A DNA stretch of 64,000 nt from NCBI GenBank assembly GCA_963663385.2, contig CAXXXD010000001.1, positions 1 through 64,000 on the forward strand. The letters are read 5' to 3'. This document shows positions 21,103 to 39,506 of this stretch, in pieces. Origin of the DNA: Oceanispirochaeta sp. (GTDB taxonomy: Bacteria; Spirochaetota; Spirochaetia; DSM-2461). The position numbers and the translations under genes are program-made. The notes under the pieces were generated by a model that searched no databases, was not told the origin of the DNA, and saw nothing but the letters and a program-made list of their open reading frames with translations. Numbering within the stretch: position 1 is the stretch's first letter; each line of letters begins with the position of its first letter.

Positions 21103-22203
21103 ATGAAACATAAACTTACATTAGCGCTCATTATCGCGGGTTTGACTCTTACTGCATCAGCGGAGACGACAGAGTCTACCGTAGAAAAGCCGCTGGAACT
21201 CCAGTTATTCCCGCTTCCGCGATACCGGGAGGTCTTCATCGTTTCCCGTGTCACCCTGGGAGTGATCGCTTCGGAAACCGATAGCGTACGGAACCTGCAG
21301 CTGTCTACGGGATCGTCCTGGGCAAAAAACAGCAGGGGGTTGCAGTTTTCCGGTGTTTTTAACAGAACTGAGACACTGGATGGGGTGCAGATCAGCTGCT
21401 TCAATTTTGCGTCTGAAACAGAAGGAGCTCAGTTCTCCGGAGTTCTTAACAAAGCCGATGCTTTGAAAGGAGTACAGATCAGCTGTTTCAATTTCGCGTC
21501 CGAAACGGAAGGTGTTCAGATTGCCGGGGTAATGAATAGAGCCGAGGCTCTGAAAGGAGGGCAGATCAGCTGTTTTAATCTTGCTTCCGAGACGGAAGGC
21601 GTTCAGATTGCCGGAGTAATGAATAGAGCCGAGGCTCTGAGAGGAGTACAGATCAGCTGTTTCAATTTCGCGTCCGAAACAGAAGGTGTTCAGATTGCCG
21701 GGGTCCTTAACCGGACGAAGAAGCTGACGGGGACGCAGATAGGGGTATTCAATTTTGCGGAGTCGGGAGACGGGAGACAGTTCGGCTTATTCAATTTCCA
21801 CAGGGATTCCTGGATAAACGCAAGGGCTGAGGTGGATTCCCGGAATTCGGCCCTGCTTACATTACAGAAAGGTCTCGGGAGTTATTATACAGCCAGTTCC
21901 ATCGGCTATCATTTCAGGAAAAAGCAGTTTTCCGCTTCCTTAGCTATGGGATACAGGTATGAAGGGGATTTCCTCTTTATGGAAGGTGAAGTCAAATTGA
22001 CTAAGAACCATTTATCCTTTTCAGATGTGGATCTATTACTGGGTCCGGGGCTCCGGACAGGGTTTAAGGTAAAAGATGGAGTATCTCTTTTCTGTGGAGG
22101 AGCTGTTATGGGCTGCCTCAATGATTCATCGGATCGATCCGAAATTTTTCCGGGGCTATACATCCGCCCGGAGATATCACTTGGTATCGGAAGAAGTATC
22201 TGA
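21103..22203 (+). CDS. Exported repeat protein (LA_2272-like GxQI.G..N repeats) with a possible C-terminal beta-barrel
   Basis: Signal peptide and four 29-aa (87-bp) repeats GVQISCFNFASETEGVQIAGVMNRAEALK. The start could be 21088 or 21103. Confidence 0.7.
   Translation: MKHKLTLALIIAGLTLTASAETTESTVEKPLELQLFPLPRYREVFIVSRVTLGVIASETDSVRNLQLSTGSSWAKNSRGLQFSGVFNRTETLDGVQISCFNFASETEGAQFSGVLNKADALKGVQISCFNFASETEGVQIAGVMNRAEALKGGQISCFNLASETEGVQIAGVMNRAEALRGVQISCFNFASETEGVQIAGVLNRTKKLTGTQIGVFNFAESGDGRQFGLFNFHRDSWINARAEVDSRNSALLTLQKGLGSYYTASSIGYHFRKKQFSASLAMGYRYEGDFLFMEGEVKLTKNHLSFSDVDLLLGPGLRTGFKVKDGVSLFCGGAVMGCLNDSSDRSEIFPGLYIRPEISLGIGRSI
21382..21730. repeat. Intragenic 87-bp tandem repeat (about 4 copies)
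   Basis: 'cagatcagctg' recurs every 87 bp. Confidence 0.85.
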
Positions 22204-22373
22204 ATATGGATCTTTGTGCACTATGTATTCAGCCCGTACCATATTTTGATCCATATAAAATATCATCTTTCACGATAAAACCATTTTCTGGATTTTCTCT
22301 CAGCTGTTTCCTATCTTTATTTTTTCCACCAATTTCAAATAAATTCCCATCTATTTCAAAATCACCGTAAGCG

Positions 22374-23924
22374 TCAAATGAACACAGGTCCTTTATCAAC
22401 TGTAATATCTTCTTTTATATTCCAGGGTAAAAGAGCTTCCCAATCCTGTTCATTTTTAACTAAGGGAGCCATGGTAAACACAAAATATAGATAATCAAAG
22501 GGATTCAAATCGTTCTGTTTCGCGGTTTCAATCAGAGAATACATCCCGCAGGAACTGTCTGCCCCTTTGGGATTCCCGGAAAATAACCAGTTTTTCCTCC
22601 CCAGAACAAAAGGGCGGATAGCGTTTTCACTGGCATTATTATCCGGAGTCAGATAAGGACTTTCCAGATACCGAATCAAATAATCCCATTGATTCAATGC
22701 ATAGTGAACAGCCTTTCCTAAAGCACTCTCGGGTAGAACATTTTCAGATCGTTTATCCAGCCATCGTTTAAATGCATCAAGAATAGGTCCGGCCTTGCTT
22801 TTCCGTTGTTCCAGAAAATCTTCTAAAGATAATTTCTTGTTCCTTAGATCATTTTCCAAGGCATATAACTTCTTGATATGCTTGATCCCTTCCAGAGCAC
22901 TTTTAGATTTTTTACTGGCTTTATCAGCCTCAAAGAACTTCCTTCTGGCATGAGCAAAGCATCCAACCAGAGAAATATCCGGATTTCCCTCCACTGCAGT
23001 TTTGTACCCTTGATATCCATCGGTTTGGAGATACCCTTCAAAATCTGTGAGAAAATTCTTTGCATGTTCCGATGCCCGTGTCGGATGGTATTCGTAATAA
23101 ACAGCTGGCTGTCCCGGAGGACCGCCTCTGGCCAGCCACATATAGGATTTTTGTCCGTTATCCCGACCCGGTTCATTCAAAACCTGTACGGTTGTTTCAT
23201 CCATTTGAAGCACCGGACCGGATTTTAAGTGTGTTTTCAGTAGTTCAAAGAGCGGGAGAAGAGCTTCATAAGCCTTTTTCTGCCAATTACTCATGTTCTG
23301 ACGGCTAATCCGGGCTCCCATGCGCTCAAACCGCTTTTCCTGGCGGTAAAAAGGAAGATGATCCACATACTTATTTACCATCAAAAATGCCAGCAGACCA
23401 GGAGTGACAATCCCTTTGGGGATGATGGAAGGCTCCGGAGGGGCAATCTTTACAGCAGGAACATCTTCATCGGCGGTTCCTTCACAATTACCACAGGCAT
23501 ATTTAAACCGGATAATCCGCTCTACCCAGATACGAGGAGGGATTACATGCAGCTTCTCAGATATTTCTTCTCCGATCTTCTTCAGTTCCGTACCACAGGC
23601 ACAGGTTTTCTCATCCTCAGGAATATCTAGAATCTTTTCCTTACGGGGAAGGTTTTCATCCAGAGGTTTTCTTCCTGTTTTCTTACGCTTGTAAGAGGGG
23701 ATTTCCTGTTCTGCAGAAGTATCTTCCTCAGGTGTCTGTGATTCATCTGTATCAAATAATTCAATTTGTTCCGGAATATTTTCTGCTCTTCGGCCGAATT
23801 GCCTATGTAGAGCCAAAGCCAACTTTTCTTCAAGAAGCTGATATTTCTTTTCCCAGTTCTGGTTCTGAGCTTCAAGTTGTGAAATATACTCCTGGGCCTC
23901 TTTTGGAAGAGCTGCTTTATCCAT
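22374..23924 (-). CDS. tnpC: IS66 DDE transposase TnpC
   Basis: KYVDHLPFYRQ, DET, LQTDGY, CFAHARRKF and DNNASENAIRP...GRKNWLF motifs. Confidence 0.95.
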   Translation of the reverse strand: MDKAALPKEAQEYISQLEAQNQNWEKKYQLLEEKLALALHRQFGRRAENIPEQIELFDTDESQTPEEDTSAEQEIPSYKRKKTGRKPLDENLPRKEKILDIPEDEKTCACGTELKKIGEEISEKLHVIPPRIWVERIIRFKYACGNCEGTADEDVPAVKIAPPEPSIIPKGIVTPGLLAFLMVNKYVDHLPFYRQEKRFERMGARISRQNMSNWQKKAYEALLPLFELLKTHLKSGPVLQMDETTVQVLNEPGRDNGQKSYMWLARGGPPGQPAVYYEYHPTRASEHAKNFLTDFEGYLQTDGYQGYKTAVEGNPDISLVGCFAHARRKFFEADKASKKSKSALEGIKHIKKLYALENDLRNKKLSLEDFLEQRKSKAGPILDAFKRWLDKRSENVLPESALGKAVHYALNQWDYLIRYLESPYLTPDNNASENAIRPFVLGRKNWLFSGNPKGADSSCGMYSLIETAKQNDLNPFDYLYFVFTMAPLVKNEQDWEALLPWNIKEDITVDKGPVFI

Positions 23925-23965
23925 AAGAGAATTTTAGCAAAGACAGGAATTTGAGTAAATTCCTT

Positions 23966-24313
23966 TCAGGCAATTTCTGAATATTTCAATGTTTCGTGGG
24001 TTTTCCAGAAGTCTATACCCTTCAGAAGCATAGAGAGTTCTTCAAAACTGATGGCTCTGGCGGCTTCTTGCGTGTCTGGCCAGGGGAAACGGTGTTTTTC
24101 CAAACGCTTTTGCCAGAGGCAAAACCCTGTCTGATCCCAGTAGAGGGCTTTCAGAATACGTCTCTGTTTATTACAGAATAGGAAAAGAGAACCGCAAAAA
24201 GGATCAAGAGCCATCTCATCCTGAACTTCTACGGCCAAACCGTTTATGGCTTTCCGCATATCAGTAACACCGGGTCGGATGAATATCTTGATTTGAGAGA
24301 AATCCTTAATCAT
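23966..24313 (-). CDS. tnpB: IS66 accessory protein TnpB
   Basis: TDMRKAINGL...LFLFCNK...LYWD..GFCLWQKRLE motif. Confidence 0.95.
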   Translation of the reverse strand: MIKDFSQIKIFIRPGVTDMRKAINGLAVEVQDEMALDPFCGSLFLFCNKQRRILKALYWDQTGFCLWQKRLEKHRFPWPDTQEAARAISFEELSMLLKGIDFWKTHETLKYSEIA

Positions 24314-24647
24314 TGCACTGTTCCAGGGTCTGAAGTAGTTTCTTCAATGTCATTGTATCAAAATCCCGGTCCAGTATTATCCGGTAGGATTTCCATTGTA
24401 ATTCAATGGATGAGCCTGTGACTGTTTCCCTGGGTAGTTTAGCAGAAACTTCAACCAAATATTGTGGTTTCCGTTTGTATCGCTTCCTCCATCCATGGAA
24501 TGTTGTTGCTTTTAGGTTTTTATCCCGGCAGAATTGATTTACTGATTTGCCAGATAGTTCCCATTCTGCCAGAAGAGCATAGCGCTGATCCATTTTATAT
24601 TGTTTCAAGGAAGACCTCCTTGTGAGATTGTACTGGGAGGTCTTCAA
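24306..24647 (-). CDS. tnpA: IS66 accessory protein TnpA (HTH)
   Basis: W..SG.SV..FC.......TF.GWRKR motif; first gene of the IS66. Confidence 0.85.
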   Translation of the reverse strand: MKTSQYNLTRRSSLKQYKMDQRYALLAEWELSGKSVNQFCRDKNLKATTFHGWRKRYKRKPQYLVEVSAKLPRETVTGSSIELQWKSYRIILDRDFDTMTLKKLLQTLEQCND

Positions 24648-25157
24648 AATTATTAGATGCGGTTTATTTGACGGTTACAAATCACCAATCTTGCTTACAT
24701 GAATATTATATGTTTTCTGTTTTCAGTTTATAATGGTTTGAGATGTCTTCAAATATTGTCTTATCTATAATTCTCTGGATCTTTTGACTGTAAGATTCCT
24801 GACCTTCAAGAACAAAAGGGTAGTATCCTGAACCAGGATATTCCTTGAAATAACCTTTCAGTTTTTTTATTTCACCGATTTGGGATTCAAAGGAGGATCT
24901 ATTATTAATAATCTCCTTAGGTAGTTATGAAATTACTTATCACTAGAGTACACTCCAATAATCGTTTAGATATATTTGACTATACTCCAATATTAAGAGA
25001 TTTCAAGTCTATTCCGGGTAGACCAGCGGCAAAATTCTCCTCGATTCCAACAGTTTAAAATTAGCACACTGATCGCGCATGGCAAAGTAATCTTTATCCT
25101 TCTTCAGGTAGTGATTCGCTCCAGTAAGGCTGACTGCTGCATGCGTTTGTACCACCA

Positions 25158-26234
25158 TTATTTTTTCAGTAAATCATACAGAGAACGATTTACATATATT
25201 ATTTCCTTTCCCAAACGAAATGATTCTAAAACACCAATAGATTCCAACTCTTTTAAATATTTGCTTGCAGTTCTTCTTTCGGCGATTCCTGCCTCCACTA
25301 GATATGCGATCTTCGTATATGGTTGGATAAAGAGTAATTCAATTAATTCTTTTGAATAAATTGTTTTAGGTAATTTATCTTTACATTCCTCAATAGTCTC
25401 ATTCAGTAAGTTTATAATTGAAGAAATAATTTCATACGTTTCTTTTGATGTTTCTTCTACTGCTTTTAGCATATAGATTATCCAATCTTCCCATCCTTCA
25501 GTTTTGTGCATCTTTTGAAGCAATCGGTAGTACTGGTTTTTATTCTTTATGATATAAGAACTTAGAAATAATATAGGTGTGTCTAGTAATCCTTTCAGCA
25601 CAAGGTATAATACATTGATGATTCTACCTGTTCTTCTATTTCCATCATAAAATGGGTGGATTGATTCAAATTGGTAATGGATAATTGCCATTTTTATCAA
25701 ATAATCTGTTTCATCATCTGAATTAATGTATTTCTCAAGATTTGCTAGCAAATCTTTTATTACATCTTCATTGTCTGGGGGAGTATAGAGCACTTCTCCT
25801 GTAGTATCGTTAACTAAACTGGTTCCTGGCAATTTTCTTAAACCAGCCGAATTTTGTTCCAATTCTTCTTGAATCGACAGGATCGTATTTACTCGTAATA
25901 TGTCGCTTTTCTTAATTTCTGAATATCCTAACCATAAAGCTGATCTATAGCTAAGAACCTCTTTAGTCGCCGGATCTATTTTTTGTTCTTTTGCTACAAT
26001 CGCTTTATACAGATTGTCTTGTGTTGTAATAATATTTTCAATTTCAGAACTGGCCGATGCTTCCTTGAGAATAATAGAGCTTAATAATATTGAATCATTC
26101 GGAAGGAGCGAACAGTATCCTTTTAAACGGGCTAACTCCCTGTTGGCTGAAATAGCATGTTTTAATACGTTTTTAGACTCAATGTCGTGCTTAGGAGGAA
26201 GTTTAGGTAGATCATTATTTGGTATCTTACTCAT
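25158..26234 (-). CDS. Fic family protein (Fic_N + Fic + C-terminal wHTH, SoFic-like); integron cassette
   Basis: SSEIEN inhibitory helix; HPFYDGNRRTGR motif (G>R variant). The start is probably MSKIP at 26234. Confidence 0.9.
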   Translation of the reverse strand: MSKIPNNDLPKLPPKHDIESKNVLKHAISANRELARLKGYCSLLPNDSILLSSIILKEASASSEIENIITTQDNLYKAIVAKEQKIDPATKEVLSYRSALWLGYSEIKKSDILRVNTILSIQEELEQNSAGLRKLPGTSLVNDTTGEVLYTPPDNEDVIKDLLANLEKYINSDDETDYLIKMAIIHYQFESIHPFYDGNRRTGRIINVLYLVLKGLLDTPILFLSSYIIKNKNQYYRLLQKMHKTEGWEDWIIYMLKAVEETSKETYEIISSIINLLNETIEECKDKLPKTIYSKELIELLFIQPYTKIAYLVEAGIAERRTASKYLKELESIGVLESFRLGKEIIYVNRSLYDLLKK

Positions 26235-26243
26235 AACATGTTC

Positions 26244-26271
26244 ATTGTAACCCAATAAATGTACACGTCAA
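26244..26271 (-). promoter_or_regulatory. Putative sigma70 promoter inside the Fic cassette (TTGACG-16-TACAAT), possibly leaderless
   Basis: The -10 ends 9 nt before the ATG and no Shine-Dalgarno is visible. Confidence 0.55.
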
Positions 26272-26340
26272 TAGCTCATGTGCATATATTGATGATTTTT
26301 GCTCATAAACACTTACTCGTGTTCACGGTGTGTATATAAC

Positions 26341-26778
26341 GAGACTGTAGAAAAACTCAAACTGGGTATTTTCAAGGTTCCCCTGAAAGCACTCATTTGG
26401 AAAAATCATTCATCTCTTTGATTTCAATATTCAATCCGATTAAAACCGGCTATATTCAACTATAATTGGTTTATCCTACGCTATACCCATTCTTTAGCAC
26501 TTTTCCGTATTCCTACGCACTATACTGCTGGATTTTCCCGATATTACGCACCATACAGTACAACAACCACTGTGTCCGGACCTTTTCCGTACCCCGTAAA
26601 GTAAAGCGATTCAGCTTTTTCATTCCGGCAATATGTCCGAATACAGGTTCTACCGTACTCATCCGTTTTGCATAAACTGATCGTCCATAGGGCGTATCAA
26701 TTTTCTCCTTCATACCCTTTTATAGAATTTTACCATGAATTGGCTGAGAGCTGTTGAAAAGGTGACTTTTTCAGTCTC
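26341..26778 (-). mobile_element. Internally deleted IS1182 (438-bp non-autonomous derivative) inserted in an attC R' box
   Basis: Near-identical to both ends of 31788..33578, and flanked by a duplicated AAC. The right inverted repeat lacks 3 nt. Confidence 0.93.
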
Positions 26779-26884
26779 AACATTCTTTTAAGCTGCAACG
26801 CGTCAATTGGCGCAAAACTTGCCAAGCGAAGCGACCAGCAAGTTTCGTGACAATAGCGTTGACAGGTTGAAGCAGTTGTTAGGC
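26779..26884 (-). other. attC site of the DUF4386 cassette (R' interrupted by the IS1182 derivative)
   Basis: R'' GCCTAAC contains the gene's stop codon. Central palindrome ACGAAACTTGC...GCAAGTTTTGCG. Ends GAATGTT; the empty site restores GTTATAT. Confidence 0.85.
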
Positions 26885-27484
26885 AATCTTTCTTTTATTT
26901 TTTATCACATTTATTGGAAACCAAAATATTAAAAGAACTTCTCCAATAAATGTAATTATTGAAATTTCCAATGTACTATTTGGTTGTATAATTTTTACAA
27001 CAGTATCAAATATATAACCAAATCCAGAAATAAATACTAAAACACCTAAAATCTTGGAAATAAATTTCGATTTATAAATCAAATAAGCCAAAACAATCAA
27101 ATGTATTCCAAATACAATTAGGCCATAACTCCAAAGTATATTAAATTGTGAATATTTTAAATTTGGTTCGGTTTTACCTAAATATATATAGATTAGTATT
27201 AATAATAGATAAACTGCATAAACGATTCTTAGTATCATGCTAATTGTTGCTATTTCTTTGTTTACATTAATAAAAACATTTTTTAATGTATATCCAACTA
27301 ATATATCAAGTATAGCTACCAAGCAAAATAGTAACAAACCAAATCCAAGCATTGAATTAATATTTTGATTTGAATATTTTTCTAAAATATTTAGTCCCAA
27401 AGGAGCTATAACAGCCATAACTAATAAGTAAAATGATGATATAAGTTTGTTCTTATCCATTAATGAAAGTGTGATATTTTTCAT
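26879..27484 (-). CDS. DUF4386-like membrane protein; integron cassette
   Basis: About 6 TM segments; WSYGLIVFGIHL and IGEVLLIFW motifs; AGGAGG RBS; stop codon inside R''. Confidence 0.7.
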   Translation of the reverse strand: MKNITLSLMDKNKLISSFYLLVMAVIAPLGLNILEKYSNQNINSMLGFGLLLFCLVAILDILVGYTLKNVFINVNKEIATISMILRIVYAVYLLLILIYIYLGKTEPNLKYSQFNILWSYGLIVFGIHLIVLAYLIYKSKFISKILGVLVFISGFGYIFDTVVKIIQPNSTLEISIITFIGEVLLIFWFPINVIKNKRKIA

Positions 27485-27508
27485 TCTATCCTCCTACAAT
27501 TACTAACA

Positions 27509-28240
27509 CTAAAAACACTGAAATTCCGCTTCTTCCCTACCCCGACAATGAATTAACAGATCATCCGCATAGCGAGCAAAAACAAGCTGAGGATGCTCTC
27601 GATTCATCCATTCATCAAAAGCATAATGTAGAAACAGATTCGCCAGCAAAGGACTGATGACGCCACTCTGTGGCGTCCCCAGTTCTCTGTCAATGACATT
27701 TCCATCAGCATCCTCTGCGGGGGCCTTCAACCATCTTTCAACATATAGCACTACCCAGGCGGGCGGATTATGATGCCGCACCGCTTTCAGTAATAATTCA
27801 TGATTAATGGTATCAAAGAACCCTTTAATGTCCACATCGACAACCCAGTCATATTTCCAGCACCTCTTCCGAGTTATTGCCACAGCCAGATGGGCCGACT
27901 TCTTCGGTCTATACCCATAGGAATCAGGATGAAACAATGGTTCGAGAAGCGGTTCAGATACATTCTGGCCGTCATCTGAGCGACTCGATCAAGCACCGTC
28001 GGGATTCCCAATGGTCTTGTCCCACCGCTCTTTTTAGGGATGTCTACACACAGGACAGGTTTGGGAAAGTAACTTCCGGAAGACATACGATTTCAAAGGG
28101 CGTACAGGATATCACTCTCCCGATCTTTCATCCCCTCCAGAGTCATACCATCCACACCGGCAGGCTCCCTTCTTCCTTACCTGTTTGTACGCCTTCCAAA
28201 GCACTTGCTTTGAAATAGCAAACGGTTTTGTCTGTCCCAA
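27509..28240 (-). pseudogene. ltrA: Group II intron reverse transcriptase pseudogene
   Basis: RT motifs IPKKSGGTRPLGIPTVLDR, DSYGYRP, DIKGFFD, GTPQSG and YADD. Frameshifts near 28165 and 27955, an in-frame TGA at 28093-28095, and a C-terminal truncation. Confidence 0.9.
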
Positions 28241-28797
28241 TAATTCCTCCCGAATATATTCCGGTTGATTACCGGACCAGACTGAATATGTCAGCTCCTT
28301 CGCTCCAGTCTCATTACAAGACCTTCAACACTACTACGAGCTGATCCGTCCCTGTGCCGCGCATCGGTACTTTCTCGCTTCCAGTTCTTCTGTTACGCGA
28401 TTTTCCCTTAACATCACGACGACAGGTTCCCACGTTCCTCAATATCGCCTGTCTTTGGCTCGTGCCGCCTTTATACCGGAGACCGCATACGCACTTAATC
28501 AGGTTACGCCGCATACTTATTCATGACGCATGCAACGCCCGTCATTTTCGATCTCATCGTACAAACTTTCGATACCTCATCGACGGTTCACTTTCGTTCA
28601 CCTTCCAAAGACTCACCTGACAGGTTCAATTCCTGCTTTTTCCGTCAACGTTCACCACAAAGGCTCTTAACCGATGCAGCTTGCGGTGGTTTGAAACCTG
28701 CTCCTGAAAGCCGATTCCGAGGGGCCTACCCTCATCAATACTGTAGTTACGAAATTAACTCCATCTATAAGATTAAAGGTGCCCTCTCGTGGCACAC
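27509..28797 (-). mobile_element. Group II intron, RmInt1-like (bacterial class D), 3'-truncated, inserted in an attC left arm
   Basis: 5' end GTGTG at 28797. Domain I motifs GGAATCGGCTTTCAGGAGC and GAACGAAAGTGAACC. The RT breaks off just after YADD, so the maturase domain, DV and DVI are absent. Confidence 0.9.
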
Positions 28798-28817
28798 GTT
28801 GCATGGCATTGTTAAAT
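28798..28817 (-). other. Left arm of the ATPase-cassette attC (R'' ATTTAAC + AATGCCATGCAAC), cut by the intron
   Basis: R'' is the exact complement of this cassette's core GTTAAAT (30112..30106). The arm matches the other attC left arms. Confidence 0.85.
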
Positions 28818-28826
28818 AGCCTCCAG

Positions 28827-30038
28827 CTAATAGAGGAATCCGAATAGGTGTAATGGTATTTCATATTTCGATCCGTATAAAATATCATCTTTGACTATAA
28901 ACCCGTTTTCTGGATTTTCTTTCAGCTGTTTTCTATCTTTATTTTTTCCACCAATTTCAAATAAATTTCCATCTATTTCAAAATCACCGATTTTACTTAC
29001 ATGGATATTATATCCTGAGTTTTTAACCATATTAATAAAAAATATCTCTCGGATAGTTCCTATATGCGATTCAAACCCGATTTCATTTGATATTGAGGAA
29101 TATAGATCGGGGTTATCTAAATACATTTTTTCTGTTTGTTTTAGAATTTGGCTTCCAGCTTTATTCATTGATAATAAAGCGATGAGTCCTGTTTCCTGTA
29201 ATATTTCCAAATAATTCTGAACAGTCCTATTATCAAGTCCAATGTTCTTGGAAATACTATTTCGGTTTAGTTCTCCTGGTGGTATCGTTGCCATATAAGC
29301 CAGTATCCGTTTGAAATTGGATAGATTTTCTGTTTTTAATTTATAGTGGTTTGAGATGTCTTCAAATATTGTTTTGTCAATAATTCGCTGGATCTTTTGG
29401 CTATATGAACCCTGACCTTCCAGCACAAAAGGGTAGTATCCTGCACCAAGATACTCCTTGAAATAGCCTTTCAGTTTCTTAATTCCGCCGATTTTTGACT
29501 CAAAGGCAGATCTATCATTAATTATTTCTTTGAAAGAGATGGTTCCGGTATCAGCTATATCATTGAATAATAAATATTCTCGAAATGATAATCCCCCAAT
29601 TCTGTAAATTACACCTCTTCTTGATAGATCATATGTTCCTTTAATCAGATCTATACTGGAACTTCCTGAGAATATGATCTTTATATCCGGGTATGAATCA
29701 TAGAGATTTTTTAATTCCTGGTTCCAATTAGGGTATTTATGTATTTCATCCAGGAAGAAATATCTTACCCCATAATCCTCATACAGAGTATTTACAAATT
29801 CAAGTAATGTGTTTTGAGAAAAGTAAATATTGTCAATTGATGCATAGATGCATTCATCAATATTTGGAATTTGTTCTTTTATGTACTGAAGAAGTAATGT
29901 TGTTTTACCTGTACCTCTGGGACCAATTAATCCTGTTAGTCGATTATCTGTATTGAAATCAGAGTATATGTATCTATGGTGTGAATATTTAGTGTATTGT
30001 AGGAGTCTTTTATAGGTATTTATGAAATTGCTTATCAT
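28827..30038 (-). CDS. AAA_14 ATPase with C-terminal DUF4143-like domain; integron cassette
   Basis: Walker A GPRGTGKTT, Walker B FFLDEIH, SGSSS, LSRR and EIGGKNK. GGAG RBS before the ATG at 30038. Confidence 0.9.
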   Translation of the reverse strand: MISNFINTYKRLLQYTKYSHHRYIYSDFNTDNRLTGLIGPRGTGKTTLLLQYIKEQIPNIDECIYASIDNIYFSQNTLLEFVNTLYEDYGVRYFFLDEIHKYPNWNQELKNLYDSYPDIKIIFSGSSSIDLIKGTYDLSRRGVIYRIGGLSFREYLLFNDIADTGTISFKEIINDRSAFESKIGGIKKLKGYFKEYLGAGYYPFVLEGQGSYSQKIQRIIDKTIFEDISNHYKLKTENLSNFKRILAYMATIPPGELNRNSISKNIGLDNRTVQNYLEILQETGLIALLSMNKAGSQILKQTEKMYLDNPDLYSSISNEIGFESHIGTIREIFFINMVKNSGYNIHVSKIGDFEIDGNLFEIGGKNKDRKQLKENPENGFIVKDDILYGSKYEIPLHLFGFLY

Positions 30039-30073
30039 TTGAGTACACTCCAATAATTATTGCCATATTTTTG

Positions 30074-30101
30074 ATTGTACTCTATTTTTATAAAATATCA
30101 A
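30074..30101 (-). promoter_or_regulatory. Putative cassette-internal sigma70 promoter (TTGATA-16-TACAAT)
   Basis: An equivalent TTGAAA-16-TATAGT is kept in the decayed copy near 24980-25010. Confidence 0.55.
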
Positions 30102-30105
30102 GCCT

Positions 30106-30211
30106 ATTTAACGCCCAAATCAGCTGCAACTTTGTCCCGAAGGGTTGGCGTAGTTTTTGAGAAATCAAAAACTATGACAAAAAAGTTGTCAGTTGCATTT
30201 GATTGTTATGG
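30106..30211 (-). other. Intact attC site of the TerB_N cassette (106 bp)
   Basis: R'' CCATAAC contains the stop codon; ATGCAACTGACA arm; central TAGTTTTTGA/TCAAAAACTA hairpin; GTTGCAGCTGAT arm; R' GTTAAAT. Confidence 0.92.
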
Positions 30212-31729
30212 CGCCATCTTTTTTATAAGTTTCTCTTTTCTTTGCTCAAAATCTTCTATTGATTGTCCGTATTTAATTGCTCTATTACATACATTTAATG
30301 CTTTTTCATATTCTTCTTTTTTATCATAAATTATGACTAAACGTTTAAATGCCGGTATATTTCCAATAAAGCCCTTTTCTTTTATTCCTTCAATTTCCTT
30401 TTTTATATTCTTATCTCCAGTAATAGAAGCAAGTTGTTTGGCTCTATCTATTTCTTCTTTGATATTGGCCTCAGTCATTTCATCAAGAGTGTCTAAATCT
30501 AATTCACAATATTCAATACATTTATCTATATATTTCTCATCTAATGATCTGAATTTATAATAAAAGTCTTGTAATTGTATAAAAGAAAAATGTCTGCTTA
30601 CTGGACTTCTTTTATTCTTTGAGAGTTCGCTCAATAATTCTTTCTCTTGCTTCTCATCAAATTTAATTACTTTATTTGGTTTCGCTGGGGCTTTCTTTTT
30701 AGGAAGGGATTTACCTTCTTTCCTCATTTCGGCAAGTTTCTTCTTTACGTCTTCATGAGCAGTTTCTAAAAAGTTATACATTTCCCTTTTTAATTTGAAA
30801 TTCTCAGCTAAAAGGGGAATAGAGATTGATTTATCGATAATGGACATGTTTGCAAAGATGCCAACATCTTGTTTATTGACTTTCTTTATTTCTGATGCTG
30901 TCAAATATTTCTTTAATTCGATCTTGTCTGTGCCAAGTTTGGATATTACAATATCGGTGAGGCATTGTAAAAATAATTCCGGATATTTCTTAATATAATT
31001 CTTATTATTAAATTCAAAGGTCGATGCCATGCGCATAATATCCTTTGGGAATAGAGGAATATCAAAACTGTAATAGCAGATCAAGAATAAATTATCAGAA
31101 AAAGCTAATTCATGTTCTTTATCTAGTGATTTAATAAAATCTAAAACAAGATCGCCTCTGTTATGCAACATACATGATAGAACTACAGCATTTGCTGAAT
31201 AAGATTGAAATGATTTATTTGTATGAACATCTCTTAATTTCAGAATAACGGAAATTGCTTTTTCAAAATTTCCTGATAATAGATGTCTTTCCAATCCATA
31301 ATATAAGATAAAAACAAAACCAATATCGATTGCTGTATTGTATGGATTTGCGAGTAAATTTAAATAAACCCATTTTTGTTCCGGTGATAACTCTGTATAT
31401 GTTGGATAATATGATGGCCTTTCAACTAAACGAATATCTTTTGGTTGAGATATTTTTTGATTTGTATATATAAGACTTGGTTCTTCATGATTTTGAAACG
31501 AAATTGTTATTCGGTAACCATCAATTTCGAAGAAATTTTCATCTCCTTTTGATTGAATATAATTTTTGTATTTTCCATCCCCTATCCAAATTAGTTCTTT
31601 TAAATCTTCGTGTATTGTTAAACCTTTTACCGATAGACTTGCATTTTTAATAGGAGCAATTTCTTTCTTTTCATCTTGTGATTCTTTAAATTTCTGTTTT
31701 GTTCTTTTTCCAAAATTAAATAATCCCAT
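30206..31729 (-). CDS. TerB N-terminal-domain protein with a C-terminal TPR-like region; integron cassette
   Basis: PSYYPTYTELSPEQKWVYL..L...IGFVFILYYGLERHL (TerB_N-like); C-terminal AFKRLVIIYDKKEEYEKALNVCNRAI. Confidence 0.7.
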   Translation of the reverse strand: MGLFNFGKRTKQKFKESQDEKKEIAPIKNASLSVKGLTIHEDLKELIWIGDGKYKNYIQSKGDENFFEIDGYRITISFQNHEEPSLIYTNQKISQPKDIRLVERPSYYPTYTELSPEQKWVYLNLLANPYNTAIDIGFVFILYYGLERHLLSGNFEKAISVILKLRDVHTNKSFQSYSANAVVLSCMLHNRGDLVLDFIKSLDKEHELAFSDNLFLICYYSFDIPLFPKDIMRMASTFEFNNKNYIKKYPELFLQCLTDIVISKLGTDKIELKKYLTASEIKKVNKQDVGIFANMSIIDKSISIPLLAENFKLKREMYNFLETAHEDVKKKLAEMRKEGKSLPKKKAPAKPNKVIKFDEKQEKELLSELSKNKRSPVSRHFSFIQLQDFYYKFRSLDEKYIDKCIEYCELDLDTLDEMTEANIKEEIDRAKQLASITGDKNIKKEIEGIKEKGFIGNIPAFKRLVIIYDKKEEYEKALNVCNRAIKYGQSIEDFEQRKEKLIKKMAP

Positions 31730-31787
31730 AAATTACTCCTTTTTCAATACTAAATGACTACACTTTATTATTTTTTGTCGGCATAAC

Positions 31788-33578
31788 GAGACTGTAGAAA
31801 AACTCAAACTGGGTATTTTCAAGGTTCCCCTGAAAGCACTCATTTGGAAAAATCATTCATCTCTTTGATTTCAATATTCAATCCGATTAAAACCGGCTAT
31901 ATTCAACTACAATTGGTTTTATCCAACGCTATACCCATTCTTTAGCACTTTTCCGTATTCCTACGCACTATACTGCTGGATTTTCCCGATATTATGCACC
32001 ATACAGTACAACAACCACTGTGTCCGGACCTTTTCCGTACCCCGTAAAGTAAAGCGATTCAGCTTTTTCATTCCGGCAATATGTCCGAATACAGGTTCTA
32101 CCGTACTCATCCGTTTTGCATAAACTGATCGTCCATAGGGCGTATCAATTTTCTCCTTCATACCGGCCATGGGATTGCTCCCTTTTCCATCCGGCACTTC
32201 CTTCAGTATGGCAACCTGACGGGCCTTTGTCGTTTCCTTTCTTATACATTTTGAACGAAGTTTACAGTCACGACAATTGCGTATATGCCCTTGATAGGAC
32301 TTTCCGGTATACCGACCGTCATTGCTTCTGAAGTTGGGGGATTTCAGCCACATGGCATGACCGGCAGGGCAGATCAGTTGGTTGGTTGCCGTATCCATAT
32401 AAAAGTCTTCCGGACTAAAATAGTGTTTTCCTTTTTCCGGTTTCCAGTTGGCGACTTTCTTTTTGTATCTGCCGGCATCCTGGAAGGCAACATGCCTTTT
32501 CCTGAACTGATTGTCCGGGATATAGGCATCGATCTTCTTCTCGCAGATCATCTGCATGTTCTTTTTATTATGGAATCCTGTATCCGCTGTTATGGTGACA
32601 TTGTTATAGATGTGGTCATCTATGTGAGATTCTTTGCAGCTCTTATCAATCCCCTCAAGTATCTCTGTTAGGTGTCCTGATTCGTTTACATCACCGTATG
32701 TATCGGCAAATATAATTAATTGATGCTTGTCGTCTACTGCAGCAATGCCATTATATCCCTGTATAACGCCATGTCCGGTGGACATTTTAGCGCTTTCGTT
32801 ATCAACTATATTGCTTTTAATGGGCTGATCCTGACTCCCGAAACGGTCATAATGGGTATCAAGCCATTTGTAGATTTTTTCTGTTTTTGCCTTTAGCTTT
32901 TTGATGGCTTTCTTTTCTTTTTTACGCTGCTCTTTATCTTCCCAACTGGCATCCGTATTCTTGTGTTTTTCAATCAGATAGTTTACGGATTTCTCTATTT
33001 TCTTTGTTTTGGCAAATAGTTCCGCTTTGGTTCCGCTCCATTCCTTTGAACAGTTTGAGGAGATCTTGCAGCCGTCAATGGCAAACATGTTTTTGCCGAT
33101 CAGTCCCTGTGTGTAGCAAACAGAGAGTATCATGGTAAATAGGGTTTGGCACTCTTTATGACGGGAAGAGATAAAATCGGCAATGGTTGTAAAGTGGGGT
33201 CTGGAATCGGCGGCTAGCGCCATACAGACGATATTCTCCCGGCATAACTGTTCAATTTTTCTGCTGCTGTTTATGCCTTTTGAATAGGCGTAAAGGACTA
33301 TTTTTAAGAGGATGGCAGGGTCGTAGGCGGGAGCTCCGGTTTCATCATTTTCGTAGTGGTTTTCAAAAACTGACATATCAATTTGATTGTCTATCAGATG
33401 GCATAATGTATATTCGAATGTTCCTGGTAAAATCTGTTTTTTAAAGCTTACGGGGATCATCATTGTCTGGGTATAAGAATACTCTTTATATCTGGCCATT
33501 ATTGAAAACCTCCCTTTTATAGAATTTTACCATGTTTTGGCTGAGAGCTGTAGAAAAGGTGACTTTTTCTACAGTCTC
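31788..33578 (-). mobile_element. IS1182-family insertion sequence (complete, 1791 bp) inserted in an attC R' box
   Basis: 15-bp perfect terminal inverted repeat GAGACTGTAGAAAAA; flanking AAC duplication; single transposase gene. Confidence 0.95.
31961..33499 (-). CDS. IS1182-family DDE transposase
   Basis: GAPAYDP..LLK..LYAY, PHFTTIADF, AIDGCKI, ADTGF and VEPVFG motifs. Confidence 0.95.
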   Translation of the reverse strand: MARYKEYSYTQTMMIPVSFKKQILPGTFEYTLCHLIDNQIDMSVFENHYENDETGAPAYDPAILLKIVLYAYSKGINSSRKIEQLCRENIVCMALAADSRPHFTTIADFISSRHKECQTLFTMILSVCYTQGLIGKNMFAIDGCKISSNCSKEWSGTKAELFAKTKKIEKSVNYLIEKHKNTDASWEDKEQRKKEKKAIKKLKAKTEKIYKWLDTHYDRFGSQDQPIKSNIVDNESAKMSTGHGVIQGYNGIAAVDDKHQLIIFADTYGDVNESGHLTEILEGIDKSCKESHIDDHIYNNVTITADTGFHNKKNMQMICEKKIDAYIPDNQFRKRHVAFQDAGRYKKKVANWKPEKGKHYFSPEDFYMDTATNQLICPAGHAMWLKSPNFRSNDGRYTGKSYQGHIRNCRDCKLRSKCIRKETTKARQVAILKEVPDGKGSNPMAGMKEKIDTPYGRSVYAKRMSTVEPVFGHIAGMKKLNRFTLRGTEKVRTQWLLYCMVHNIGKIQQYSA

Positions 33579-33692
33579 AACGCCCGCATCAGCTGCAATT
33601 TTGTCCCGCAGGGTTGGCGCAGATTTTGAAATGAGCGAAGCGACTTCAAAATCTGTGACAAAAAAATTGTCAGTTGCATGCGTTTGTTCTAC
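33579..33692 (-). other. attC site of the Lamassu cassette (R' interrupted by IS1182)
   Basis: R'' GTAGAAC; ACAAACGCATGCAACTGACA arm; CAGATTTTGAA/TTCAAAATCTG hairpin; ends GGGCGTT. The empty site restores GTTATGC. Confidence 0.9.
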
Positions 33693-33746
33693 AGTGTCGA
33701 CCAGTTACCTTGTTATATTTGTAATAGCTTTAGGTCATTAATATCA

Positions 33747-35591
33747 CTATTCAATAAATCCACGTCTATCACCTTCTGTATTACCGCAAAAATATATGAA
33801 ATTAATTTTATTAATAATTTTCTGCTGAGGAGTTTTGTTATCAAAAACGATAATCTGCCTATCTTCGCTTGTATCTGATAGATAATCAAAAAATCGATCT
33901 TGAATATCTTCACTTATTTCATCATTAGTTTCTCGTAGAGCATTCTTCCCATGATAGGTTGTTAAAGGGGAATCTAAAACAATTAGAGGATTAAATGATA
34001 TTCCTTTTTCAACGACCCAATCTAGTATAGAGATTAACAACGCAGAGTATGATATTGCTCTGAATCCTTTTCCAAAACTCTTTCGAGTTTTTCCAGAAAT
34101 TGTGTAATCAAAAGTTCTATAACCAGTATCAAAGGTAATTGATTCCCAACCTGGATAACCAAATCCTTCTAAAATGGAAGATAATTTTGTACAAAAATCT
34201 TTTATATGAAGAAATTCTTCCGAATGTTCAGAGTCAGGCTTTGATTTCCCTTTTTCAATTTTCTCATTTAATTCAGCTTCTTTTTCAAATAAATAGTTTA
34301 TTCTTTCAGTAAGAATTGTAACCTTATTGGAAATAATTTGATTTTGTTCAAATCTTTCTAATTTTTCCTTAAATGGTATTATCTTTTCATTATTATGCTT
34401 TTTCTTTTTAACTGCCTCTATCTTACTTTCAGACAATACACTCAACTCTGAATTAATATCCAATACTTCTTTTTCTAAATTAACAATCGATTCACTAATA
34501 TCATTTTTTTTATTGGATATTTTTTTGTATTCTGCTTCAATAGATTCATTAAATACTTCTTCATCAAAATCAGAATCAAGTTCTGATGTAGTAATTTCAC
34601 TATCACAAATTGGACATGCTACAGTATTCAATTGAGAAATCAAGCTATTACCTTCTGACACAAATTGCATTCGTTCTAAATCTGAATTATAGTGCTCAAG
34701 TAATAACTTAAAACGATTGATTAGTTCTTTCTTGAATTCCTTTTTATTCTCATTTTCAAGAATGTCATCATTTATCTTCATTATTTCTTTATTGATATCG
34801 CTAGATACAGTCAAGATTCCATCTATGTCTAGTTTTGTTTTGTTGATAACTTGAGAATAATCGGTACCATCATCGAGAAGAGCTTTTTTAGCAGAAAGAG
34901 CCGTGATTTCCCTATTTGTTTCATCTCTCTCTGAAATGATGAACTCAATTTGACCTAATATATGAGTTTTCTTTTCCTTTTCAATTAAAGGGTTAATAAA
35001 ATTGCTATCATCCGTCCCGGATAATATATATCTAAATAGTGATTGATAAAAAGTTTGATCTGGATATTGACCAGTAGCATAAATAGGTGACTTTTCAGTG
35101 ATAATTCTATCCTCTGGGATAACAGTAAATTTCCTTAAGTCTCTAAAACTAATTTTCTTCTTCTCTGTTTTTTTCTTTTTAAATTCTTTGTTATACATAC
35201 CGCATGTTTTTAATAAGTAGACAGACAAATTATTTTCAGAAGAGGAAGAATGGTTTAACAGAAGCTTTTCTTCTTTTTTCGTATTATCATAGTTTTCAAA
35301 AGTACATTCTTTAATATAAACATCTGTATTTTTGATGTTTCTATATATGGTTAGTGGTTTTTCTTTATATGTGCTTATTTGTAGATAAAAATCTTCATAT
35401 CCAATCGCTTCAGGAATTTCTTTTGGATTTTCACTTCTTCCCAATAAGAAATCTATACACGAAAAAGCGTATGATTTCCCTGTATCTGAAACACCAGAAA
35501 TTAAATTAAATCCTTTTTTAAATTCTAATTGAGATTTTTTGTTTTGAGTTCCAATAACAACTAGTTTTTTTATATAGAATCCATCAAGCAT
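33747..35591 (-). CDS. lmuB: SMC/Rad50-like ABC ATPase of a Lamassu / ABC-three-component system (LmuB)
   Basis: Walker A GVSDTGKS, coiled coil with a CPIC zinc hook, signature GKGFRAI, Walker B IVLDSPL. Confidence 0.85.
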   Translation of the reverse strand: MLDGFYIKKLVVIGTQNKKSQLEFKKGFNLISGVSDTGKSYAFSCIDFLLGRSENPKEIPEAIGYEDFYLQISTYKEKPLTIYRNIKNTDVYIKECTFENYDNTKKEEKLLLNHSSSSENNLSVYLLKTCGMYNKEFKKKKTEKKKISFRDLRKFTVIPEDRIITEKSPIYATGQYPDQTFYQSLFRYILSGTDDSNFINPLIEKEKKTHILGQIEFIISERDETNREITALSAKKALLDDGTDYSQVINKTKLDIDGILTVSSDINKEIMKINDDILENENKKEFKKELINRFKLLLEHYNSDLERMQFVSEGNSLISQLNTVACPICDSEITTSELDSDFDEEVFNESIEAEYKKISNKKNDISESIVNLEKEVLDINSELSVLSESKIEAVKKKKHNNEKIIPFKEKLERFEQNQIISNKVTILTERINYLFEKEAELNEKIEKGKSKPDSEHSEEFLHIKDFCTKLSSILEGFGYPGWESITFDTGYRTFDYTISGKTRKSFGKGFRAISYSALLISILDWVVEKGISFNPLIVLDSPLTTYHGKNALRETNDEISEDIQDRFFDYLSDTSEDRQIIVFDNKTPQQKIINKINFIYFCGNTEGDRRGFIE

Positions 35592-36099
35592 TTATTGTCA
35601 CTCCTCGGAATAGTGGCTCATTTACAAATTCATTTCCCCAGTTTTCAATATTTTTATTTATGTATTTATCTAAGTCTATCTCTGTATATAATTCGAATTT
35701 TGCTGTTATCCATCTTATTCTATCTTTCAACTTTTCTGTATATTCACTTCTAAAATGCTCAAGAAATGGACTGAGTAATTCTGTTTGAGTATAAAAGATT
35801 CCTTTTTTATTCATTTCAACCTGTAAGAGTTCTTTTGAAATCATTTTATTCAATCCAGCCCGAACTGCTTTTCTTTTTATTAACAATTGTGTAGAACGGT
35901 AGGGGGCTTCGGGATGCAGGTTTTTCGGGCCACCAATATCTTCTGTGAAAAGAATAAGATAATCAAAAGAAATTATTTGGTTTAAGGAAAGTGGCTTGTT
36001 AAACCCGTTTATTATAAATAAAGATCTTAACCCTAATTCCAGTGAATGATTAAATAATTGGTTATTTTTATAGTAAGAAAGCATTATTCTTTTACCCAC
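35584..36099 (-). CDS. lmuC: ABC-three-component middle component (LmuC-like)
   Basis: FNHSLELGLRSL...FDYL...DIGGP.NLHP motif; overlaps both neighbouring genes. Confidence 0.8.
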   Translation of the reverse strand: MGKRIMLSYYKNNQLFNHSLELGLRSLFIINGFNKPLSLNQIISFDYLILFTEDIGGPKNLHPEAPYRSTQLLIKRKAVRAGLNKMISKELLQVEMNKKGIFYTQTELLSPFLEHFRSEYTEKLKDRIRWITAKFELYTEIDLDKYINKNIENWGNEFVNEPLFRGVTINA

Positions 36100-37166
36100 C
36101 TTATTTTTTTATCATTGACCAAATGATGACATATACCTTCTTTATCTTGCACTTTTATTTCATAAAAAAGTGGATTGTTATTGAATGAACCTCTTTTTGC
36201 TTCTTTTATTGCTTCTTTCAGTCTAATAAAACCATTCTCAAAATCTGATTCAACAATATCAATGATCAAGCTAAAGATTTCATCTTTTAATTCTTCAAAA
36301 GAATTACTATTATACGGTAGCTCATCTCTACTGAATTGATACAATGAATCCGCAATGTAAAAACTATCCCGTTGTCTTTGAAAATGATTAAGCAATTCTT
36401 GTTTATCAGAAATATCTTCTATACTGGAAATAAATCTATTAAGATAATCTGAATAAGCAGCAAATATTTCTCTAATATAAACCAACTCATTCTTTTCTAT
36501 ATCTTTATTTGCCTTTGGCAGTTCTTCTCTTGTTTTATTTAAGCCTCCACCAAACCATCTAGAAAAGAAAGGTGTCTGTCTAAATTGATCAATGAAAGTA
36601 TTTGGCTCAAGCCAGTCTATAATGGAAAAATTGAATGTATCGAAATATTTTAATATCTCACCTTCTAACTTTATATTTTCTTTCGTTGTAATTCCTTTTT
36701 CACATTTATCAGCCCAATTGTTTTTTAATTCCTGTTTCAATTTTTCAGGGTTTTCTATAAGTCCTAATAATTTTGGACCTATTCCCTTAGGTGAAACAAA
36801 ATAGTATTTTCTTGGAACTGAATAATCTTTATTAAAAGTATAGTAAATTAATTTACCGAGCTCGATATAAATTTCTGCGGGTGAAAGCATAGATGAATAG
36901 TGCTTACATTGATAAAGATCCCAAACTTGCTTCTCTTCATTGACTATTGCACATACATCCCGGCCTTTATCACCAGCTCCCCCAACACCATAGACTTTTA
37001 TATACTGTTTTGTCACATGATAATGTGCCCATTGTAGGACTAATTCCTCATATTGATCTTCGTCAAGAGCTTCAAGTATCTGATTTGGTTTCAATACAGG
37101 ACCTAATAGTATTTCACTGTTTGATAACCGAGAAATATTTTTTGGTTTTTCTAGTTCTGTAAACAT
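36084..37166 (-). CDS. lmuA: Lamassu effector: PD-(D/E)xK nuclease plus ABC-3C C-terminal domain (LmuA)
   Basis: YEEL...GGAGDKGRDV...YQCKHY nuclease motif; C-terminal GICHHLVND..IRWV motif. Confidence 0.8.
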   Translation of the reverse strand: MFTELEKPKNISRLSNSEILLGPVLKPNQILEALDEDQYEELVLQWAHYHVTKQYIKVYGVGGAGDKGRDVCAIVNEEKQVWDLYQCKHYSSMLSPAEIYIELGKLIYYTFNKDYSVPRKYYFVSPKGIGPKLLGLIENPEKLKQELKNNWADKCEKGITTKENIKLEGEILKYFDTFNFSIIDWLEPNTFIDQFRQTPFFSRWFGGGLNKTREELPKANKDIEKNELVYIREIFAAYSDYLNRFISSIEDISDKQELLNHFQRQRDSFYIADSLYQFSRDELPYNSNSFEELKDEIFSLIIDIVESDFENGFIRLKEAIKEAKRGSFNNNPLFYEIKVQDKEGICHHLVNDKKIRWVKE

Positions 37167-37315
37167 TTAATGTTTCTACCTCATTTACATGACTATTTAT
37201 AATCGATTATTAAGCAACTCTCCCACTGGGATATTCTCTAAATTCATTCTTTCAAAGGACAACTTAAATTATGTAAAAATATATCACTTTTTCACAACAT
37301 AATTAATTTGCATCT

Positions 37316-37490
37316 GTAGAACGCCAAAATATGCTGCGGAGCGGCCTGGCCGAAGGACAGGTACAGGCGCTTTTCTTGCAGACTTATTTTAAACAGTAAT
37401 TTGTTTTTAAGAAAGAACTATTTATCAGCATTCTGTATCTCTGCAAGAAATGTGATCTGTAGCGACGACAGTATCATTTTCTTGTTATGT
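37316..37490 (-). other. Long attC site (175 bp) of an ORF-less cassette
   Basis: R'' ACATAAC; AAAATGATACTG arm pairing with GCAGCATATTTT; TTTCTTGCAGA/TCTGCAAGAAA stem; R' GTTCTAC matches the Lamassu R''. Confidence 0.8.
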
Positions 37491-37818
37491 CTACAGCATT
37501 TTGTAAATCACCGATGCCATATCAGGCAAGAATATCTTAATAAACGTAGGTGAAGGCGAATTCCCTTATTTTCACTTCTGCCAGCCGCAACCGGCGTCAA
37601 AGATTGATAATCAGTGTAGTGTGAGCATCAATCAACCCGTATCAAAACCCTAAAACCTACTAAATCATCTGGCAATTATGAAAGAACCAGAAGTACAAAA
37701 TGTGTTCGATATAACTTATTATCTCTTGAACAAGGTAATCCCAAAATCCATAGAATTACCCTGCACCCCCGCAGCATAACTGTCAATTCTAACAATTCCA
37801 CTGACACTCCCAGAGCAC

Positions 37819-38919: not shown

Positions 38920-39119
38920 GATGTAAAGCTCCTTTCAGTTGTGCTGTCCCACTGCCTCAATCGGGCAGAGTATTCTGCGCAACAAAAGTATACACCCAAT
39001 CAATGATTCATAAAGTCATAAAATTCCTTTTTTTGGTCATATGCTCCTATTTTGATACTAACTTTAGTTAGTATATGGAGGAATTCTGCTATCACCTGTT
39101 AAGCATTATTCAGAAATCC

Positions 39120-39506
39120 TTAACGAATAAACACCGCAGGAGAAACACCGTATTTTTCGGACAGCTTCCGGATATGCCCCAGATTCAGCTCCCTTTTCCC
39201 GTTTAAAATCTCGCTGATTACGGACTGGGTGGCCACATCGGCAAGATCAGCCTGCCTGTGATTATGGTTTTCCATCAGGTGCTTCAGCATATCAACAGGA
39301 GAAACCGGTTCTACCGGATAGTGTTCATCCTCATATTTTCCTATCATGCCGGTAATATAGTCAATAATCGGTTCCAGGTCCGACTCCCCCGCTTCCATTC
39401 GGTCTGTCAGGGCTTCCAGCTCTTCAATAGCCCTGTCATTTTCTTCATCTGTGGAGATTCTGAATTTCAAAAGGAAATCGCTTACAACTTTTTCAACACC
39501 CATACT
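39120..39506 (-). CDS. higA: HigA-family antitoxin (HTH)
   Basis: YEDEHYP...LKHLME....QADLA...QSVISEILNGKRELN...IRKLSEKYGVSP. The start is uncertain (39506-39548). Confidence 0.88.
   Translation of the reverse strand, partial: SMGVEKVVSDFLLKFRISTDEENDRAIEELEALTDRMEAGESDLEPIIDYITGMIGKYEDEHYPVEPVSPVDMLKHLMENHNHRQADLADVATQSVISEILNGKRELNLGHIRKLSEKYGVSPAVFIR

Follow-up and report, generated by a model that had tools for sequence, protein, structure and literature searches.

An integron cassette array headed by its own attI site and remote from the single integrase gene in an Oceanispirochaeta genome

The DNA considered here, referred to as the window, consists of the initial 64 kb of contig C1 in an Oceanispirochaeta sp. 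genome (GenBank assembly GCA_963663385.2; G000 in what follows), which comprises 5.3 Mb in four contigs (C1–C4) and is 98% complete. The window contains an integron cassette array in which all cargo genes, between 22240 and 37715, lie on the minus strand and the cassette DNA has a G+C content of 30%, compared with 51–52% in the flanks of the array. A preliminary description had recognized integron cassette architecture, a spirochaete host and the lack of an integrase nearby, all of which hold, and had classed the array as a CALIN, a group of attC sites without integron-integrases. Here, we report that the array is headed by its own attI site and that the only integrase gene found in the genome lies on another contig. 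In addition, arrays of the same layout recur across the genus, and two kinds of mobile elements have inserted at attC sites of the window array.

The attC sites were sought with a covariance model built from 39 short attC candidates, all from other genomes and none from G000. These 39 sites had been chosen by a pairing filter, so that the test is not fully independent and the covariation figures are inflated; with that inflation, 24 of 34 pairs in the alignment change on both sides, and 93.5% of cells are paired compared with 32–38% when the alignment is slid. Run against the window with filters off, the model gave six hits, of which three are strong and lie on the plus (bottom) strand, at 30106–30211 (79.4 bits), 33575–33692 (74.2 bits) and 26775–26884 (68.0 bits), while the remaining three are opposite-strand echoes of the same sites (11.8–14.8 bits). 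The whole genome yielded 13 hits, all of them inside four attI-headed arrays. The 174-nt site at 37316–37489, too long for the model, gave no hit. It can be aligned with 17 long attC candidates from relatives, and its fold pairs AAC with GTT (z −2.7, with 1 of 200 shuffles as good). The four attC-shaped palindromes seen earlier were thus all recovered in place, three by the model and the long one by alignment and folding. Bottom-strand folding, a check proposed with the preliminary description, shows the AAC/GTT R box and the L box paired and extrahelical bases present; z is −4.2, −6.8 and −2.1 for the three short sites, compared with −4.0, −4.0 and −0.6 for the top strand, on which the AAC/GTT box is left open. 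The extrahelical bases are mostly C and T, the usual extrahelical base in attC being G. Core and inverse core match at the cassette ends as previously read (GTTCTACAG/CTGTAGAAC, GTTATG/CATAAC and GTTAAATAG/CTATTTAAC), and the cassette with a DUF4386 gene adds a further pair, GTTAG/CTAAC. An early heuristic scan missed two of the four attC sites of the window, and a regular-expression pattern missed most attC, so that only cassette junctions were taken from it. The sole Rfam match in the window at gathering score is an intron domain (RF01999).

With three model hits and one long-family site, the array has at least two attC, and there is no intI or intI pseudogene nearby: contig C1 holds no PF00589 or IntI match, none of the nine PF00589 matches of the genome lies on it, and the earlier reading that the 64 kb contain no tyrosine recombinase open reading frame stands. 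The array is therefore a CALIN by the operational definition, which asks for two or more attC sites without a nearby intI. That label is incomplete, since the array keeps an attI and an intact IntI is encoded elsewhere.

Read from right to left, the array begins with the attI core (37713–37736, minus strand), with its G|TT crossover at 37715 and all 24 nt identical to the intI-linked site on C2. The first cassette (37322–37715, minus strand) is gene-less and spans 394 bp including its long attC A (37316–37489; plus, the folded bottom strand), which is the 174-nt site above. The second cassette carries three adjacent and intact Lamassu genes on the minus strand, encoding the effector LmuA with a CTD6 domain (36084–37166; PADLOC 1.9e-102), LmuC (MC2; 35584–36099; PADLOC 3.9e-41) and the SMC-like ABC ATPase LmuB (33747–35591; PADLOC 8e-133); LmuA has no solved-structure relative by sequence. 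It ends in attC B (33575–33692, plus; model hit and folding), at the core of which lies an insertion sequence (IS) of the IS1182 family (31788–33578, minus) with 19-nt inverted ends, a GTT target duplication and a transposase gene at 31961–33499. The third cassette encodes a TerB_N-domain protein (30206–31729, minus) and ends in attC C (30106–30211, plus; model hit and folding); as evidence of a Shango system there is only a weak match to SngA, SngB and SngC being matched by none of ten proteins scanned. The fourth encodes an ATPase with AAA_14 and DUF4143 domains (28827–30053, minus; PADLOC candidate PDC-S01), which matches only candidate defence systems.

Further left, the array is increasingly broken. 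The left arm of attC E (28798–28819, minus) serves as the 5' exon of a truncated and frameshifted class D-like group II intron (27530–28797, minus, the cassette strand; RF01999; left boundary approximate), and the last 7 nt of this arm pair fully with the loop of the intron's exon-binding site 1 (EBS1). The 3' part of the intron and the remainder of attC E are deleted. A probable right arm of another attC, recognized by eye (27501–27530, plus), supplies the GTTAG core of the fifth cassette, which encodes a DUF4386 membrane protein identified by domain match (26879–27484, minus) and ends in attC D (26775–26884, plus; model hit and folding). An internally deleted copy of the same IS1182 element lies at the core of attC D, again with a GTT duplication (26341–26778, minus). 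The sixth cassette encodes a SoFic-like Fic protein that scores below the NCBIfam cut-off (25158–26255, minus). The usual Fic motif contains ...GNGR..., from which the motif of this protein, HPFYDGNRRTGR, departs. It is followed by attC F (25120–25157, minus), with a degenerate left arm and its right half missing; this remnant and the one at 28798–28819, both noted earlier as partial sites, are left arms only. In place of the right half of attC F stand about 110 nt (25014–25119) without a second copy in the genome. The left end of the array is a second, broken copy of the AAA_14 cassette (22240–25013, minus; pieces 79–93% identical, with an internal deletion), which has no terminal attC and is interrupted by an IS66 element carrying tnpA, tnpB and tnpC (22368–24678, minus; 8-bp target duplication). 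Decay thus grows with distance from the right end, the pattern expected if cassettes enter there. As for the cargo, its identities agree with the preliminary description (Lamassu, TerB_N, ATPase, Fic). The term 'defence island' used there fits, judging by sequence, Lamassu and SoFic, and does not extend to the TerB_N gene, a lone SngA-like gene, or to the ATPase, a candidate only; the defence cargo presumably acts against phage.

The right boundary first proposed for the array, 37715, was correct as a coordinate, although the attI of which it is the crossover base had been missed. This attI was identified by position and sequence identity. A stretch of 257 nt (37485–37741) is 98.8% identical to the DNA between the C2 intI and its array, and the gene-less cassette also occurs behind ordinary attC sites on C3, always starting from GTT, which places the crossover at 37715 and makes the bases upstream of it attI. 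The genome-wide search for IntI that had been suggested found one intact gene, on C2 (1687729–1688955; TIGR02249, 381 bits against a cut-off of 265). Its product aligns over 310 residues with VchIntIA (2a3v), including the IntI-specific insertion, with the catalytic motifs in register. Four exact copies of the 24-nt attI core are present (C1:37713, C2:1687453, C3:727498 and C4:1177611); the genome holds no further match with up to four mismatches, one more at five, and ten in all at six. Every exact copy heads an array, and the first cassettes differ among the four. The window array accordingly has an attI at its head and no intI beside it, and even with contigs joined end to end it lies at least about 200 kb from intI. 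Directly upstream of the attI, a co-directional gene for a 366-aa protein with no Pfam match and a lipoprotein-like signal by eye (37819–38919, minus) ends some 100 nt short of the crossover, too close for an intI to fit between.

The upstream flanks of the four attI are homologous but diverged, and their neighbours differ, which argues against both collapsed repeats and fragments of a single array. An assembly artefact, in which repeats misplaced the attI and the first cassette, is hardly credible. The genome does contain many identical copies of IS and introns, one of which forms the end of C4, within the array there; but each of the four attI is flanked on either side by unique sequence that differs from that of the others, the layout recurs in relatives assembled into one to three contigs, and sequencing runs of two studies, one of which may be the source sample, contain 92–94% of sampled words of 36000–38200. 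It is also very improbable that the arrays arose when IS-driven rearrangement broke up one large array, or by insertion of cassettes at secondary (attG) sites. Copies of IS66, IS1182 and other IS abound in the arrays, both routes are documented in the consulted portions of PMC4889954 and bioRxiv 2022.09.11.507474, and some attI-less clusters of relatives behind integrase-bearing insertions would fit. However, splitting yields one attI, not four with diverged flanks; attG sites, in the description seen in bioRxiv 2022.09.11.507474, differ in sequence from attI, and an attI1 donor was not inserted into genomes in the assay given there; and for the window array this explanation is contradicted by the attI at its head.

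The platforms upstream of the four cores are not equally preserved. Those on C2, C3 and C4 have about 180 nt in common, with a palindrome and a promoter-like block, while the window platform shares only about 75 nt with them, patchy homology continuing for about 50 nt upstream of the attI core. The 14-nt palindrome, which lies about 140 nt upstream of the other three attI, is found in the window 1.3 kb upstream of the attI, past the lipoprotein-like gene (39058–39071). It has nine exact copies in the genome, compared with none for a reversed control; the others are at C1:330984, C2:1687618, C3:120538, 123697, 135619 and 727343, and C4:650694 and 1177456, so that four copies go with the four integron platforms and the other five lie elsewhere, mostly where G+C is low. 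At the equivalent position, relatives carry different palindromes. A role of the palindrome as a LexA box is not supported, as it is not found upstream of the single lexA, which may sit inside an operon.

The gene-less cassette provides a second connection between the arrays. The copy in the first slot of the window array is identical at 394 of 394 positions to one in the second slot of the C3 array, the match starting at the G of GTT, and a C4 copy is identical at 386 of 394 positions and has lost its first bases. This cassette contains a core of about 46 nt (37545–37595) that is also conserved elsewhere in the genus, in five other genomes or more, and it often stands first after attI. A structured RNA in this core is not supported, with seven pairs, none compensatory.

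Could the satellite arrays be frozen remnants of integrons that were each once complete, whether duplicated or re-acquired, and have since lost intI? The attI would then be passive, and the shared cassette would have spread earlier or by homologous recombination. Loss of intI is among the CALIN origins recognized in the part of PMC4889954 consulted; the window platform is shortened and the distal end of its array decayed, one satellite locus in G000 is decayed, and intI adjoins different genes in different species, so that the platform has moved. Against this stand the absence of any intI remnant near the G000 satellites or in the satellite loci of relatives, the invariance of the 24-nt core beside drifted flanks, which points to selection or conversion, and the site-specific boundaries of the identical gene-less cassette. 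We therefore regard frozen remnants as unlikely. With its attI kept and an intact IntI elsewhere in the genome, the window array looks like a serviced satellite, not a stranded remnant.

Comparison with relatives shows that such satellites are widespread in the genus. IntI was found in nine of ten other genomes, with one match each, and all five near-complete genomes of the genus that were examined have at least one intI-less array headed by attI. Sites resembling attI were first sought with patterns drawn from the relatives' own intI-linked sites, which matched five sites in G007, three each in G002 and G017, two each in G009 and G003, and single sites in several others. Twenty of the matched loci were taken for inspection, the second G003 match being left out. 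Five hold intI; ten are intI-less and have an attI-like site at a drop in G+C followed by same-strand attC (four in G007, two in G002 and one each in G017, G009, G005 and G003); two lie at contig ends (G017 and G006), one is centred on a cassette, and two without attC (G013 and G018) were taken as chance matches. By the reverse route, attC clusters were located in five genomes of one to three contigs and attI was then sought at their heads, which gave an attI at all five G007 clusters and two more sites in G002; by eye, a further site was recognized in each of G005 and G008. Both routes together give four satellites in G007, four in G002, two in G005 (one by eye), one by eye in G008, one each in G009 and G003, and one in G017 besides one at a contig end. 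In most readable cases the first-cassette core equals the first inverse core at 7 or more bases. A further attI pattern search recovered none of the satellites that had been recognized by eye.

The attI sequences are largely genome-specific. Of 22 attI sites compared in a matrix, 17 come from genomes with more than one site, and for 15 of these the best match is another site of that genome. For example, the satellites near adhE in G000 and G007 score 26 against each other, which is background (shuffles have a mean of 20.5 and a maximum of 37), and 120 and 150 against their own intI-linked sites. Satellite positions recur between species, near adhE in G000 and G007 and beside one gene of 188 aa in G007 and G003, and an attC cluster lies behind a WYL gene in G008 and G005, with attI visible in G008 only. 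A search for the empty locus via the genes flanking the window array matched deoC in two of ten genus genomes (44% identity) and the DUF4097 gene in one of ten, none usable; the G002 DUF4097 gene, 16 kb past an array, was considered as a matching locus and not counted, as its orientation differs. Exact copies of the 24-nt core of G000 occur in none of 40 relatives and in no metagenome contig. Variations on the layout include a membrane-protein gene between intI and its attI in G005 (C1:2081264–2082618), a similar gene preceding an attI without adjoining intI in G009, and, in G008 (C2, about 2774800), the satellite attI behind the WYL-domain gene, which by eye is closer to the G000 core than to its own intI-linked site.

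Taken together, the window array is probably one arm of a multi-locus chromosomal integron, in which one IntI acts in trans on several attI. The single integrase encoded on C2 would serve attI docking sites spread over the chromosome, excising cassettes at folded attC bottom strands and inserting them at the G|TT of any of the four attI, the window site included. The window array would have grown by successive insertions, with the newest cassettes by the attI (the gene-less one, then Lamassu) and the oldest and most decayed at the left end. As the source texts describe it, IntI recombines a folded attC bottom strand with a double-stranded attI, so that no physical link between intI and attI is needed, and we infer that satellite attI still recombine and that IntI works in trans. 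The attI cores may be kept matched to the integrase by conversion via first cassettes in common, by selection acting on the binding core or by repeated re-seeding from the intI-linked platform, any of which would be consistent with the observations.

Several observations weigh against this multi-locus integron. The gene-less cassette is the only one common to the window array and the other arrays, all other DNA in common being IS, intron or attC. The promoter-like block conserved on C2, C3 and C4 is absent from the window platform, so that expression at this site is uncertain; no minus-strand consensus promoter was found between 37715 and 39300. Among the relatives, several attC clusters in G002, G005 and G008 have no visible attI, some of the attI-less clusters sitting behind integrase-bearing insertions. 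In G019, which belongs to another genus and has about ten attC clusters in one contig, none of nine loci has a clear shared attI; these loci score 31–43 against the intI-linked region, and a reverse-strand control scores 30–62. Within the matrix, both G009 sites find their best match outside their own genome, the patterns drawn from intI-linked attI bias the comparison towards within-genome similarity, and scores are lower, at 63 and 37, for the two G002 sites located through attC clusters. The G000 orthologue of the 188-aa-gene locus has palindromes and low G+C without attI or attC. Finally, the G002 intI (C1:3062700–3063905, sole match) has an internal TAA at codon 181, and five attI-headed arrays are kept in that genome.

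The attC sites of the window have also been entered by mobile elements. The transposase of the IS at attC B scores 280.8 bits with NF033551 (cut-off 270), which, together with the inverted repeats and target duplication, places the element in the IS1182 family. In G000, five of six left-end junctions of this element are at an attC core, and copies with both ends show the GTT duplication. GTT precedes 12 of 13 copies in relatives; nine of the 13 follow an attC by eye (four of these flagged by an automatic closed-hairpin test), three do not, and one touches a contig edge. Twelve named loci, some of which repeat the same flanks, add further attC-like flanks in distant taxa, with two Lysobacterales copies in the opposite orientation, three copies not at attC and two that could not be judged. 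The element aims at attC, inserting at the core with duplication of GTT. The IS1111-attC group comprises IS that target attC sites. The window element differs from that group: it is a DDE transposon of the IS1182 family, bounded by terminal inverted repeats, that duplicates the 3-bp GTT at the crossover.

The class D-like intron has a similar preference. Seven copies with a readable 5' end, in four genomes, are all inserted in the top strand, 12–13 nt after the AAC of an attC left arm (the AAC is degenerate in one target). An eighth match, a distant one, lies outside such sites. The EBS1 loop is readable in four copies. In three of them all 7 positions pair with the target, in one of these with a wobble; in the fourth, 5 of 7 do, and the loop sequence changes along with the target. 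Around the intact G009 copy a whole attC is split by the intron, and the protein encoded by this copy has a degenerate C-terminal class D motif and is 53% identical to the protein of an intron, its class not stated, on a Sinorhizobium plasmid. Of 80 metagenome loci kept, 26 were inspected; three of the eight closest (60–89% identity) share the attC junction, and it is absent among those at 52–56% identity. Like the group IIC-attC introns described in the consulted part of PMC7923331, this is a group II intron inside attC, but those enter the bottom strand in opposite orientation, whereas the class D-like intron, with an EBS1 matching the site, is inserted in the top strand where L'' ends; assignment of the window intron to group IIC-attC was rejected, as it lies on the same strand as the cassettes. 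The IIB introns in arrays noted there belong to classes CL1 and E, and the literature searched (supplements outside the search) names only IIC-attC and these two IIB classes as introns in attC; IS1182 targeting attC was likewise not found described within that scope. The IS1182 element and the class D-like intron would represent two additional independent origins of attC targeting. Another intron, group IIC-attC-like, occupies the bottom strand of many attC on C2, C3 and C4 and in G007 (for example, locus L009 15240–17230 on C2) and is in none of the window's attC sites.

A tentative, wider reading is that of a distributed integron, with one integrase, several long-lived attI platforms kept in step with it at fixed places, and many 'CALINs' that would be working capture sites. 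The attC pool may also have bred the IS1182 group, which duplicates GTT and can ride in the next cassette, and the clade of class D-like introns, in which EBS1 and the attC left arm vary together. In the consulted part of Cury et al. 2016 (PMC4889954), four origins of CALINs are given, attI is not searchable in most integrons, and half of CALINs have IntI elsewhere in the genome. The window array agrees with CALINs as described there in its at least two attC, the lack of a nearby intI, the IS inside it and the IntI elsewhere, and differs in being headed by its own attI; the movement considered in that text is of CALIN cassettes to the integron's attI, not the acceptance of cassettes by CALINs. 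The sedentary chromosomal integron of the VchIntIA type, as presented in the portion seen of bioRxiv 2024.07.02.601686, likewise has the IntI insertion, the attI G|TT, AT-rich DNA, and defence and gene-less cassettes, defence cassettes in chromosomal integrons being already known from it; G000 differs in having four attI-headed arrays for one integrase gene and, at the window, a platform without intI and the conserved promoter block. Xanthomonas CALINs (bioRxiv 2025.06.18.660453, part consulted) are similarly extra arrays at recurring chromosomal positions with intI elsewhere, and no attI is reported there at those CALINs. Treponema chromosomal integrons (PMC3607928, part consulted) are spirochaete integrons with an IntI of about 410 aa; their intI points towards the array and one attI per integron is assumed, whereas in G000 intI is divergent and attI multi-copy. 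Insertion of cassettes at attG has been described by Loot et al. (bioRxiv 2022.09.11.507474, seen in part). Neither attI-headed CALINs nor several attI served by one integrase were found described in the same search (supplements again outside it). A CALIN with defence cargo is thus ordinary; what is new is the attI-headed satellite recurring across the genus with genome-specific attI, and the two attC-targeting elements.

CALINs outnumber complete integrons. Standard tools are blind to attI outside classes 1–3, which leaves the origin of CALINs unsettled. If attI-headed satellites are active, a genome would be able to take up and try out cassettes at several first positions simultaneously, and tallies of 'integrase-less' arrays would misstate what is dead.

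The surroundings of the array hold three further features. Just upstream of the platform and outside the array lies a HigB/HigA-type toxin–antitoxin pair (39120–39804). The gene bounding the array on the left contains 87-nt tandem repeats (21343–21777), and a 2704-aa protein with near-exact repeats of about 657 aa (1971-nt period) and a weak Pfam match is encoded at 1318–9432, adjoining an Ig-like protein.

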